A program made the position numbers and the translations under genes. Positions 17,764-22,035 of a stretch of DNA of 22,035 nucleotides are shown here, one piece after another. Numbering within the stretch: position 1 is the first letter of the stretch; every line of letters starts with the position of its first letter. Source of the stretch: a virus; the UHGV virus genome UHGV-0200595. One strand, 5' to 3'. The notes beneath the pieces were generated by a model, which saw only the letters and a program-made list of their open reading frames with translations, was not told the DNA's origin and did not search any database.

Positions 17764-19124
17764 TGGCAACGTGGCAACAGGGTATTAATTCTGGAGGGCT
17801 TCTGGCTGGCATTGGCGCGCAAAATGAGAACGCACCAAGGGCAAGTGACATTAACGCAACTCTTGGCCTGATTCGCGAGAACAACGAGTTAGCACGCTCA
17901 GGGGCAAACAATGTGGCTCTGACAGGGCTGCGTGGTCTGGCTGGCGTCGCTGATATTTATCAGCAGGAGCAGCAGAAACAACGTAAGGCGGCATTCCAGA
18001 AAGGCTATGCGGATGCTTATGCGTCCGGCGACAGAGAGAAGATGCGTAATCTTGTTACTGAGTTTCCTGAGGAGTTTGAGGAAGTCCGTAAAGGAATGGG
18101 GTATGTCGATGATGCTCAGAGGGATGATTTTGGCAATCTGGCGCTTAGAGCACAGGTAGCCTCTTCGCTCGGGCCGGGCGCATTTGGCAAATTCATGATA
18201 GACAATGAGAAGGAAATGCGCCGCCTCGGTGTTCCGCCAGAAATCATCGCTGACATGCATGTTAATGACCCGCAGGGCTTCCAGCAGTTCGCTGGCAATA
18301 TGGCGCTGTTTTCTCTCGGTCATGAGAAGTACTTTGATATCAAAGACAAAATGGAAGGGCGAAACCTTGAGCGTCGGGGACAGGATATCACCATGCGTGG
18401 CCAGACGCTTTCCCATAACGCGATGATGGCCCAACTAAATCACGACAAATTCATTAATAAAAAATCTCTGGCAGAAATTCAGCGTGCCGGTGGCCTGAAT
18501 GAAATGGACGTGCACACATTAAATTCTCAGATAGCGTCTACCGGCTTTGACCCACTGACAGGGAAATCTGCGACAGGCGCACGAATGGGGCAGGCGAGAA
18601 AATGGTTAGAAGGCAATGATGCTTTCAACGAGGCATTGATAACAGGTGAGCGAGGAATAGAGAAGATAGACAAAATCCTCGACCAGCCTGAGCTTGACGG
18701 TGTCGGTAAATTCAGCGGTCGGATGCCCGATATTGCAACCTCCGAGGATGGATTATCCAACCGCAACATAATCGAAGAGTTGAAGTCCAGCGCGTTTGTT
18801 CAGAACGTGCAAACCCTCAGAGGCATGGGGGCGCTTTCTAACGCCGAAGGCCAGAAACTGGAAAATCTCATCGCCAGACTGGATATAACCCAGCCAGAAG
18901 CAGTGGTCAGGAAACAGCTAGCCGAAATCCGTGAGCAGTATGCTGTCTTACAAGCCGTTGCGGAAAAAGAATCTGAGTCAATGGGCTACAAATCCTCCGG
19001 CTACGACACATACGTATTGGAGCGGGCGGCTCGGAGAGCCGAACGTCAGCCACAGGGCACCGCGAAGGTGGGGCAGCAGCAAACCACTACTGGCAGCAAC
19101 TTTTCTTCACTATGGGGTGATTAA
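17763..19124 (+). CDS. Ejection protein, P22 gp20-like
   Basis: 453 aa. Assigned by order and size. The start overlaps the gp7-like stop. Confidence 0.7.
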
Positions 19125-21292
19125 TGGCTAAAGCATGGAAAGATGTTATCGCCTCTCCACAGTATCAGGTGTTAGCACCAGAACAAAAAGTACAGGCTCA
19201 AGCGCAATATTTTGATGAGGTTGTTGCCCCTAAGGCTGGTGATAAATGGGCTGAAGCAAGAGAGCAGTTTTATGCTGCATACCCTCCGCCGCCGCAGCAG
19301 AAAGAAGAACCATCATTGATGCAACAAGCTGGCGATTGGCTCACAGGTGGTCAAAGTGCAGGGCAAATAGCAGAGCAGGCTGCTCGTGGTCTGGTAAACA
19401 TACCTTTCGATGTATTGCAGGGCGGAGCTAGCCTGATTAACGCGCTTAGTCAGGGGCTTGGCGGACCAAAGGTTTTGGATGATATTTATCGTCCTGTGGA
19501 GCGACCGACAGACCCTTATGCTCAGGCTGGAGAAACAATTGGTGGGTATCTTCTGCCAATTAGTACGGCTGCCAAAGCTGCTGGTGCGTCGGCAAAACTC
19601 GCAGGTGATATTGGTTCTGCTGGCAATATGATTGTTGGTTCGCTTGCCGAAGCAGCTAATCAGGATGGGGATTTTGCGCAAAATGCAGCCATTAACGGTG
19701 GTATCAACTTTGGGGTTCAGGGCGTGTTGTCGGGTGCAGGAAGGCTGATGTCTTCTAGGTCACCCCAAATGCTTGGTTCTGGTGCAATAAAGTCTGCGGC
19801 GGATGTGTCGAGAATGGCAAAGTCTGGCTCAGGAAGGGAACTCATTGCCAGTCAGGCTGCTAATGTATCCGATGATGTAGCAAAAGCCGCAGAGGCAACT
19901 GGAGTAGATATCAACGTATTAACGCCGGGCATGAGATCAGGCAGCCGTGGCCTTGCTCAGGCGGAAGGGATTCTGGCATCAAAGCCTGGTATTACACAGG
20001 ATGCACACACCAGAGCATTCAGTGAAATAGAGTCGAAATTTAACTCTGCTCTGGATGGGCTTGGGGCTGAAGCAGGAACCGCATCAGAGAAAAGTGCAGC
20101 GATAAAACAACGAGTTCTGGCTGGCATTGACAGCATGAAGGCTTCTGAAAAGGCAGCATGGGCTGACGTTCGTTCAACGATGCCAGATGCAAAGGCCAGA
20201 ATGTCAAATCTCAACGCAATAATTCAGGGAGATATCGTTGCAGGTCTGCCGATCACTCCTGAGATGAGGCAATTCGCGTCAGCTTATGCTAAATCAGGTA
20301 AAAATGGCATCACCTTTGACGCAATGAAGACATGGAGAGGTAAGCTGGCTGATGCCGAGCAGAAGTATATAAGGTCGGGTGAGGCTGATACGGCCAGACG
20401 CATGGCAGAGCTTCGAGACGCTGCAACAGAAGACATGCGCATGATAGCTCAAAAAGGTGGCTTCATTGACCAATGGAACGCTGCTAATGACTTATCTAAA
20501 GCACGATTTGCAGCGCAGCGGCAGGCAGAGACAGCTCTTGGTAAAGACCTTGCAACCGATCAGTTGATAACTAATGGTGCAAAAGCGTTACAGAACTCAG
20601 CAAAAAGTGGAGCAGGTCAGTTTCATAAGATAATTGGTGCGTTACCTGAGTCGGAGCGCGCGCCAGCAATTGCATCAATATTACAGGATGCAGTGTCGCA
20701 AGGGGGGCGTGGAGGTAAATCTGAAGGTGCTGGGATTAAACATATCGCGACTATTCTTACTCCGCAAAACGTGAAGGCAATTAGTCGATATTCTCCTGAA
20801 CTTGGCAGAATTGCCAAGGCGTATGGAGAGCTTGCAAGAGCTGCAACGAAACCACTCCGATATGTTGAACAAACAGGGCGATCTATGCCAGCCATTAGTA
20901 CCCTTGAGAACGGTCTTCATCCAGTTTTCGTGAGTGCATTGTCTGGTGCTTTTCGAATTGCGGGGGCGTTTACAGGATTTTCTGGTGGTGGGGTATTGGG
21001 GGCAATAGCAGGAGGGGCCGCAGGTGGCGCTCTTGACGCCATGTCAAAAGCTGCAATAACTAAATTATCTGCAACCAGAAGCGGTCAATACGCTATTGAA
21101 AAAGCAGTTCAGGAAGCTACAAAGGCAGTCAAGGTTGGTGCAAGCAGTGGAGCTTTAGCGGATGCGGAGCGCAGATTTATGGCAAACAAAGCAGCCGTAA
21201 AAGCAATCCGTGATGCTATTGGTAACGATGAATTTCAACGCTTAGCGAGGGGCGGTATAGTGGCATCACTAAGCGGAATGGTGCAGGAATGA
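19124..21292 (+). CDS. Ejection protein, P22 gp16-like (long form)
   Basis: 722 aa, Ala/Gly-rich, with a hydrophobic Gly-rich segment near the C-terminus ([24 protein letters not shown]). It is the last gene of the ejection-protein block. Confidence 0.7.
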
Positions 21293-21667
21293 TTAGTTAC
21301 CCACGGATGAATTGAGCTTATTTCTGGTAGATGTGGCAATTTTCCCAACATTTTTTAACCAAGATCTTAAGAAAGAGATCTCGTCTTTAATATCATGAAT
21401 ATCCTCACTCTTTATACGATCAAGCTTGCCCTCTAGGCACTCGATAGAACTCTCAACACTAGACAGCGACATTCTTAAATCGTCTTGATCACGCTCCATA
21501 GAGTATTTTAGCGCCCAATGTTCGTTTTCTAGGTCCTTTATTTTTTGGGTTATGGAGTTCATCTGATAGTCATGTACAAACCCGGAAATAATTAACGCAA
21601 CTAAGCATAACCATTCAAACACACAAATCTCCTTATTTTTCCTTACTCTACCATGAGGATATGCCAT
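21293..21667 (-). CDS. Small membrane-anchored coiled-coil protein in the accessory slot
   Basis: One TM helix (FEWLCLVALIISGFV) is followed by a heptad-like charged region. The region is visibly AT-rich. An alternative GTG start at 21622 follows AAGGAG with 6-nt spacing; the ATG at 21667 has no SD. Its stop codon directly abuts the gp16-like stop. Confidence 0.6.
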   Translation of the reverse strand: MAYPHGRVRKNKEICVFEWLCLVALIISGFVHDYQMNSITQKIKDLENEHWALKYSMERDQDDLRMSLSSVESSIECLEGKLDRIKSEDIHDIKDEISFLRSWLKNVGKIATSTRNKLNSSVGN

Positions 21668-21677
21668 GATTTACCCA

Positions 21678-22034
21678 TCAAACTACCCACCAGTTTGCTT
21701 CTCTGGATACGAGCCTTGCAGTTTTTATGGAATTAATTACCCCATGCTCAAGAGCCTCGTTAGCATCCAAAATGGTCGAGTCTGCTATCAAGGATGCCCA
21801 CCTAACATTAGGTCCAATGTCGATATTGAACGTCTCAATGAAGCGATCAAGATCGTTATCGAGGCATTTCCCATACTCTCGCAGCCTGGCATGGTCGGCG
21901 GCTGGGGTGGAAAAGCCTCATGATAACCGGGCAGATCCTATGGGCAAAACGGAGGGAAAGTTTGTGCTTTTTGTGCAGTGTCTGACGAGGTAGTTAGCAG
22001 GGCTTCGTCAGTGAATGATGATTTGTGATGCGGA
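21678..22034 (-). other. Minus-strand open frame entering from the window edge, interrupted by an in-frame TGA (21918-21920). Either a possible pseudogene or two genes
   Basis: Hand translation gives ...FPSVLPIGSARLS*GFSTPAADHARLREYGKCLDNDLDRFIETFNIDIGPNVRWASLIADSTILDANEALEHGVINSIKTARLVSREANWWVV*. The downstream part has no ATG or GTG start. The coding strand is ambiguous because plus-strand ORFs overlap it. Confidence 0.35.
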
Positions 22035-22035
22035 T

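Follow-up and report, generated by a model that had tools for sequence, protein, structure and literature searches.

What is a small, AT-rich gene doing directly against the ejection-protein genes of a P22-like phage, on the strand that faces them? We put this question to the virus genome UHGV-0200595, a stretch of 22,035 nucleotides (nt) that is called the window below. On its minus strand, positions 21293-21667 hold a long open reading frame (ORF) whose stop codon adjoins the TGA (21290-21292) of a gp16-like gene of 722 amino acids (aa). A first-pass annotation had read this frame as a membrane-anchored coiled-coil protein and as a candidate exclusion or abortive-infection factor of unknown type. 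We identified the gene as a new hkcB allele; hkcB is an accessory moron gene of those P22-like phages whose gene 16 is of the HK620 type. As for its function, the explanation that we favor, with a probability of about 0.35, is that HkcB would be a prophage-expressed superinfection-exclusion factor, a functional analogue of P22 SieA without homology to it.

A new hkcB allele facing gene 16

Profile and sequence comparisons gave the gene its name. Residues 16-122 of the long ORF matched PHROG 5962 with an E value of 1.1e-46, covering profile positions 1-107 of 109. The tblastn E values were 2e-46 for HK620, 6e-27 for epsilon34 and 1e-24 for CUS-3, and SEN22 was matched as well. At the protein level the window product is 67% identical to HkcB of HK620 and 45-47% identical to epsilon34 gp14 and to the SEN22 and CUS-3 HkcB proteins. 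The hkcB genes of HK620, epsilon34, SEN22 and CUS-3 have the same position and orientation as the window gene, adjoining gene 16. The features on which this comparison draws are the following:

21293..21622, minus strand: hkcB-family coding sequence, 109 aa, GTG start, TAA stop at 21293-21295
Parts of its product: putative hydrophobic anchor at residues ~1-16, then a heptad-patterned helix, then the near-invariant C-terminal motif E73-S106 (EDIHDIKDEISFLRSWLKNVGKIATSTRNKLNSS)
21629..21634, minus strand: Shine-Dalgarno sequence AAGGAG, 6 nt 5' of GTG 21622, read from the sequence
21290..21295, gene 16 (plus) and hkcB (minus): stop-to-stop junction TGA/TTA with zero spacer and no terminator
19124..21292, plus strand: HK620-type gene 16, ejection/DNA-transfer protein of 722 aa (PHROG 770, E 1.9e-202)

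The window gene shows all the features by which the family can be recognized, namely the profile match, a length of 104-109 aa, a GTG start with a Shine-Dalgarno sequence, the C-terminal motif and convergence with gene 16. With HkcB of HK620 (NP_112088), epsilon34 gp14 and HkcB of CUS-3 it has in common the length of 107-109 aa, the start signals, the anchor, the coiled coil and the C-terminal motif, as well as the zero-spacer junction with gene 16 and a low GC content. It differs from them as a distinct sub-lineage, with a truncated ClpP-like gene as its upstream neighbor, whereas hkcC, a lipoprotein gene or yafO stands there in the homologues. The label "of unknown type" could thus be replaced, since hkcB already had its name from HK620 and had been recorded in epsilon34 and CUS-3. 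In the epsilon34 genome paper the region goes by the name "ant moron", the most fluid stretch of the late operon, and hkcB is listed there without known function (PMC2629481). None of the findings that the first pass had named as overturning its reading turned up; in particular, there was no structural or tailspike-associated protein among the homologues.

The family is small and limited to P22-like phages and prophages of enterobacteria. A HMMER search of 1.84 billion representative proteins returned eight matches at E<=1e-3 and five at E<=1e-10; with so few, there is no wider superfamily. No relative was present among the GTDB species-representative genomes. Among complete E. coli genomes, 154 of 5426 (~2.8%) carry hkcB, including UTI89, IHE3034 and CE10, and the gene also occurs in Salmonella, in Leclercia and in one more distant genome. 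The window protein itself is 100% identical in only six metagenomic contigs, and its nearest match in an E. coli genome has less than 80% DNA identity.

Between the two candidate starts, ATG 21667 and GTG 21622, the comparison clearly selected the latter. Residue 16 of the long ORF, where the PHROG 5962 alignment begins, is GTG 21622. In epsilon34, CUS-3 and the E. coli prophage L012 there are zero in-frame start codons 5' of the equivalent GTG. GTG with a Shine-Dalgarno sequence (AAGGAG or GGAGG) was found in 59 of the 59 full-length loci from IMG/VR, and likewise in HK620, epsilon34 and CUS-3. ATG 21667 is specific to the window's own lineage. If the "extension" looks conserved in tblastn, this is because the upstream DNA itself is conserved: in HK620 the matching DNA is the start of the divergent gene hkcC, and the start codons of hkcB and hkcC lie 30 nt apart. 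ATG 21667, with its product of 124 aa, was therefore ruled out by the profile start, the upstream frames of the relatives and the IMG/VR loci. As GTG 21622 is the start, the hkcB product has 109 aa and not 124.

We then considered the neighbor across the junction. In the window a gp20-type gene (Pfam Inj_translocase, E 5.5e-74) precedes gene 16, whose product is 85% identical to HK620 gp16 and 72% identical to CUS-3 gp16; P22 gp16 was matched at residues 64-209 only. Gene 16 comes in at least two types, which have only an N-terminal segment of ~150 residues in common. To see how the two genes travel, we collected 64 IMG/VR loci with the family alignment. An HK620-type gene 16 faces hkcB in every one of them, with a zero-nt spacer in 63. 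The zero-nt junction is also found in HK620, epsilon34 and CUS-3 and in the loci L006-L013, L018-L021 and L023. The abutment described in the first pass, with the TAA at 21293-21295 directly after the TGA at 21290-21292 and neither spacer nor terminator, was accordingly confirmed.

The presence of hkcB is variable and its composition foreign. The C-terminus of gp16 is of the HK620 type in Bas106, Louie, Huey, Dewey and phiSG1, yet these phages lack any moron, and among the E. coli genomes ~278 match the 3' end of gene 16, compared with 154 matching hkcB. Because such relatives do without it, hkcB is dispensable for virion function. In six lineages the GC content is 33-41% for hkcB and 48-57% for gene 16. 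In the window it is 37.9% for hkcB and 50.3% overall, with a standard deviation of 3.2% for 330-nt windows; this places the gene in the lowest 0.9% of such windows, and the GC skew switches sign there. The drop in GC content noted in the first pass was therefore reproduced in a windowed profile. The only other stretch as AT-rich is at 1-420 (34-36% GC in 330-nt windows), upstream of nin-region-like ORFs, which may be another moron or a regulatory region. Presence and absence among syntenic relatives and deviant composition are two marks of a moron, and both were found here; with the foreign composition in every lineage and the documented hypervariability of the "ant moron" (PMC2629481), hkcB behaves as one.

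Selection and predicted architecture of HkcB

Is the conserved feature a protein? Between lineages the ratio of nonsynonymous to synonymous rates (dN/dS) is 0.14-0.33. In the C-terminal 43 codons the proportion of nonsynonymous differences (pN) is 0.15-0.23 where dS is 1.2-1.35, that is, where synonymous sites are near saturation. Judged by these substitution patterns, the hkcB protein is real and under purifying selection, and a spurious or chance ORF is ruled out by the homologues and the dN/dS values. The DNA block over the 3' ends of hkcB and gene 16 is conserved too. We ruled out a non-coding element there, as synonymous sites vary; the block is conserved because of protein-level constraint on hkcB and gene 16. 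Rfam gave nothing above noise on this block, the best being a chance PhotoRC-II match with an E value of 0.18.

The constraint is concentrated at the C-terminus. The final ~45 residues are near-invariant, with the consensus EDIHxIxDxIxxLKxWLxNVGxIATSTRxKLNxS. Seventeen columns are invariant across 18 sequences, mostly C-terminal; D74, H76, I82, W88, N91, V92, G93, A96, S98, K102 and S106 are invariant and all present in the window protein. In the N-terminal two-thirds the pattern is kept, but the residues are not. We also observed two chimeric hkcB genes, P0010 (L021 252-587) and P0009, in which the N-terminal two-thirds including the anchor are swapped for unrelated sequence; in both, the conserved last 45 residues are retained and gene 16 is still adjoined with zero spacer.

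The first pass had described an N-terminal hydrophobic segment followed by a charged, heptad-like domain of ~90 aa, and this description held. The charged domain contains 14 lysine or arginine (K/R) and 17 aspartate or glutamate (D/E) residues. Across the family its hydrophobic positions recur at the 3-4 spacing of heptads, with two register shifts. AlphaFold2, run on an input alignment of 18 sequences, returned one unbroken helix over residues 2-108 with a mean predicted local distance difference test (pLDDT) of 80. A PDB profile search found generic coiled coils only (designed coiled coils, vimentin and GCN4), and a BFVD fold search with the single-helix model gave no match.

The N-terminal transmembrane helix of the first pass fared less well. 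A hydrophobic segment is present at this place, but its core in the window allele is short (13 residues, W4-V16), and the anchor is predicted only. The apolar stretch of the family comprises the first 13-19 residues. The Kyte-Doolittle mean of the window allele is 1.87 over 17 residues and 1.42 over 19, compared with 2.2-3.1 for the other members. A membrane anchor is likely on these predictions. No K/R precedes it in any of the 19 members, and 1-4 follow within 15 residues in all of them (2-4 in 18 of 19); because of this distribution, the positive-inside rule favors an N-out, C-in topology with the coiled coil at the cytoplasmic face. HkcB is thus predicted to be a bitopic inner-membrane protein with a very short N-terminus, one membrane helix and then a coiled-coil rod of ~90 residues, which is probably oligomeric.

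Proposed superinfection exclusion and its rivals

The slot that hkcB occupies is that of a known exclusion gene. In P22, sieA faces gene 16 from the other strand at a distance of 22 nt and is followed by orf59a, mnt, arc and ant; for HS1 sieA-B and P22 sieA together the distance is 21-22 nt. The assignment of the window gene to the sieA/immI slot was therefore sound in position and orientation. Within 3 kb of hkcB we sought sieA of types A and B and found a homologue in none of the 64 IMG/VR loci.

For the expression of hkcB, the relevant features upstream of it are:

21645..21653, minus strand: candidate extended -10 TGGTAGAGT, 24 nt 5' of the GTG, weak and proposed from a conserved upstream block
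21920..21947, minus strand: promoter-like TTGCCC-16-TATCAT with 9/12 matches, spanning a rearrangement junction and pointing at hkcB, maybe by chance
21678..21926, minus strand: 3' remnant of a ClpP-like gene (PF00574), ~83 of 178 codons, just 5' of hkcB, cut by a rearrangement, with an in-frame TGA at the junction

The counterpart of the candidate extended -10 in HK620 and epsilon34 is TGGTATCCT, and the upstream alignment shows the shared block TGnTAnnnT; the site was not called by a consensus promoter scan. That scan returned three sites against 1.9 expected, and the one at the ClpP junction is kept in all truncated ClpP-like variants. Terminator-like hairpins were sought in 20900-22035, and there were none; of the promoter and terminator expected of a moron, only these two promoter candidates were seen. 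In 55 of the 64 IMG/VR loci, an mnt-like gene on the hkcB strand stands no more than 3 kb upstream of hkcB. In CUS-3 and UTI89 the genes mnt-mnt-X-yafO-hkcB form a string on one strand with hkcB last. In the most distant member (L022) 36 nt separate mnt from the start of hkcB, and no terminator is predicted in this gap. Co-transcription with mnt is plausible in these loci. As mnt of P22 is a prophage-expressed gene, this linkage suggests, by analogy, lysogenic expression of hkcB. The decayed P22-like prophage of E. coli CE10 (L018, NC_017646 828261-838608) has gene 16 cut by IS3, its virion genes lost and its tailspike frameshifted; its hkcB, hkcC, mnt, ClpP-like gene and ant are intact.

In sister contig L006 the tailspike gene lies beyond hkcB on the late strand, so that late transcription must cross hkcB antisense, as the first pass had expected. 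The same crossing of this slot is already known in P22.

Taken together, HkcB may be an analogue of SieA, because its gene fills the place of sieA, was never found alongside it and goes with the other type of gene 16, and because the protein is predicted to be membrane-anchored. The prophage would express hkcB from its own short-leader promoter and/or by read-through of the mnt operon. The C-terminal segment of HkcB would then engage the inner-membrane end of the gp16/gp20 ejection conduit of incoming phages with HK620-type gp16, and this engagement would block or abort DNA delivery. The basis of the exclusion reading is circumstantial, positional and comparative: the common slot, the exclusivity with sieA, the linkage to mnt and the retention in a degraded prophage. 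The comparisons establish the identity of the gene, its start, selection, architecture, synteny and accessory status, and we infer the membrane topology, lysogenic expression, target and phenotype. A narrower version is more doubtful: HkcB would form a new exclusion class, a single-pass coiled-coil rod whose C-terminal 45 residues bind the HK620-type gp16/gp20 conduit cytoplasmically.

Several observations weigh against exclusion. The association with one gp16 type may be plain physical linkage, and if the rod is cytoplasmic, the periplasmic part of the conduit is out of its reach. Genes for toxin-like and ClpP-like proteins and for lipoproteins occur in the ant moron too, so that occupancy of the slot is not function; some E. 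coli prophages with HK620-type gp16 have other genes there, including one for a soluble protein of 140 aa. The anchor of the window allele is short, and no consensus sigma-70 promoter was found upstream of hkcB in the window or in HK620. A two-sequence BLASTP search of HkcB against P22 SieA gave an E value of 0.011 over 45 aa, and HS1 SieA-B gave no match, so that HkcB is not a homologue of SieA. In Pfam, NCBIfam and PADLOC there were only sub-threshold coiled-coil matches (HOOK, Tup_N, Rad50, PspC, and DpdH at 20.8 bits), which we treated as compositional. In the literature on hkcB we found no account of function, expression or phenotype.

Among the rivals, the one that survives best is a role in lysogenic conversion or phage regulation, in which HkcB would act on a host inner-membrane process (envelope stress, division or transport) or tune prophage maintenance or induction. 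Its architecture resembles that of N-terminally anchored cytoplasmic coiled-coil regulators such as PspB and ZipA, with a weak match to the PspC model (E 0.032); the gene has persisted in the decayed CE10 prophage, it has mnt and the immI region as neighbors, and ~2.8% of complete E. coli genomes carry it. Nevertheless, HK620 keeps hkcB despite decayed ant/immI genes, so there is no tie to Ant control. A role in host physiology would not explain why hkcB always stands next to gene 16 (64 of 64 loci), and homology to a host regulator never rose above noise. We therefore regard this role as possible, though somewhat unlikely.

It is less probable still that HkcB is an abortive-infection or other membrane effector, which would sense an incoming phage component at the cytoplasmic face and kill or arrest the cell. 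Small single-pass membrane proteins are common as abortive-infection effectors, the conserved domain would be cytoplasmic under the predicted N-out, C-in topology, and hkcB sits in a prophage moron, in CUS-3-type loci directly after a YafO-family toxin gene. Most loci, however, have hkcB without a YafO-like gene. No sensor or enzymatic domain is present in the 109 aa, which make up one helix, and PADLOC gave only weak coiled-coil matches (DpdH at 20.8 bits and PbeC at 12 bits).

Two further explanations seem very improbable. The locus could act as DNA or RNA, with convergent transcription over the junction tuning late read-through into the tailspike gene and the ORF secondary. The zero-nt convergent junction without a terminator and the conserved DNA over both 3' ends would fit, and the ant moron of P22 is thought to influence how often late transcription reaches the tailspike gene (PMC2629481). 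By contrast, amino acids are conserved at near-saturated synonymous sites with the low dN/dS given above, GTG and the Shine-Dalgarno sequence are kept in 59 of 59 loci, Rfam found nothing above noise, and moron-less phages make their tailspike normally. Finally, HkcB could be an accessory of the lytic cycle or of the virion, such as a protein that aids the assembly of ejection proteins or a lysis factor of the spanin or holin kind. This can hardly be right, for although hkcB adjoins the ejection-protein genes, has weak profile matches to XhlA (E 0.58) and to a 'hol-like' family (E 0.0011), and i-spanins combine an N-terminal membrane helix with a coiled coil, it lies on the strand opposite the late operon and outside the lysis cassette with no o-spanin partner, viable phages with HK620-type gp16 do without it, the CE10 prophage kept it after losing its virion genes, and the HkcB profile matched no other ORF of the window. 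This last search had also borne on a decoy idea, in which HkcB would resemble the window's own virion proteins; it was rejected, no similarity being found.

If the exclusion reading is true, HkcB would be the counterpart of SieA for roughly half of the P22-like phages, those with HK620-type gene 16, and would explain why sieA is missing there. The step in which the gp7/gp20/gp16 conduit crosses the inner membrane is poorly understood in short-tailed phages, and SieA is, to our knowledge, the only protein that interferes with it. An exclusion factor HkcB would add a second, unrelated and simpler tool for dissecting the conduit, small and tractable enough to probe how the inner membrane is opened by ejection proteins. 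Present in ~3% of complete E. coli genomes, including K1 and uropathogenic (UPEC) strains, it would also be a host-range determinant for typing and therapy phages. If it is not an exclusion factor, it is one more conserved hypothetical moron gene. In either case, what is new here is the corrected start, the conserved C-terminal module, the predicted topology and the quantified synteny and exclusivity with respect to sieA.

Neighboring genes and comparison with known systems

The remnant upstream of hkcB has a 91% DNA match to annotated ClpP-like genes, and contigs L006 and L011 have the full gene, with a product of 178 aa. Its breakpoint and a TGG-to-TGA change recur in the window and in L008, L009 and L010. 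In many P22-like and lambdoid prophages of E. coli, the ClpP-like gene stands directly after an mnt-like Arc-family gene. An ORF of 85 aa at 21666-21923 on the plus strand, called as a gene in contig L007, is antisense to the remnant and probably spurious. Other envelope proteins are encoded near gene 16 elsewhere, among them a four-helix membrane protein of 116 aa (E. coli MBT-5) and lipoproteins (epsilon34 gp15 type, Leclercia and E. coli JA0266). Such envelope morons lie at L004 1365-1715 (minus), L002 3502-3921 (minus), L026 3890-4309, L023 7514-7918 (minus) and L027 3885-4583. Envelope-targeted morons seem to be over-represented in this region.

Gene 16 itself offered further observations. 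Residues 59-264 of gp16 match PHROGs annotated 'transglycosylase' and 'lytic tail fiber protein'. In L022 (8319-10931) and E. coli JA0266 (L027 1014-3734) a full SLT lytic-transglycosylase domain is fused to gp16, giving proteins of 870-906 aa. By BLASTP of the GenBank-annotated proteins, gp16 of HK620 (L001 4370-6538) and of CUS-3 (L003 4322-6481) are 76.7% identical, which is at odds with the 26% identity quoted for this pair (PMC10883804). The discrepancy bears on why the ejection proteins of HK620 but not those of CUS-3 partly escape SieA.

How does HkcB compare with proteins of established function? In the i-spanin Rz and in PspB-type proteins, as in HkcB, a membrane helix at the N-terminus is joined to a helical or coiled-coil domain of about the same size. 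Rz, however, belongs to a lysis cassette, has an o-spanin partner and is oriented N-in, C-out, whereas hkcB lies in the ant moron on the anti-late strand. The N-terminus of HkcB is without K/R in 19 of 19 members, in contrast to the positive charge expected of an N-in signal anchor, and spanin profiles in Pfam and PHROG did not match it, so that it does not classify as an i-spanin.

A functional parallel may be found in T4 Sp, T4 Imm, HK97 gp15 and lactococcal Sie2009, small phage membrane proteins that block DNA entry of related phages. Several small injection blockers are single-pass and N-terminally anchored. PHROGs, Pfam and PADLOC revealed no homology of HkcB to these four proteins. T4 Sp probably faces the periplasm, in contrast to the cytoplasmic orientation predicted for HkcB, and none of these blockers is known to be a continuous coiled-coil rod. 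Exclusion entries for T4 and P22 are also given in PMC11436027.

The nearest comparison is with SieA (types A, B and C), an inner-membrane protein and prophage moron encoded in the same slot between genes 16 and 9, adjoining gene 16 on the anti-late strand. It is carried by 22 of 66 P22-like phages, and the ejection proteins of HK620 partly escape it (PMC10883804). Its exclusion function is demonstrated, whereas that of HkcB is only proposed. In structure, SieA crosses the membrane with several helices and bears the motif FxRYPxEAxxFNK on the cytoplasmic side (PMC10883804); HkcB is predicted to have one anchor and a coiled coil, and the motif is absent from it. In the examples examined, sieA (P22 and HS1) goes with a P22-type gp16, and hkcB with an HK620-type gp16.

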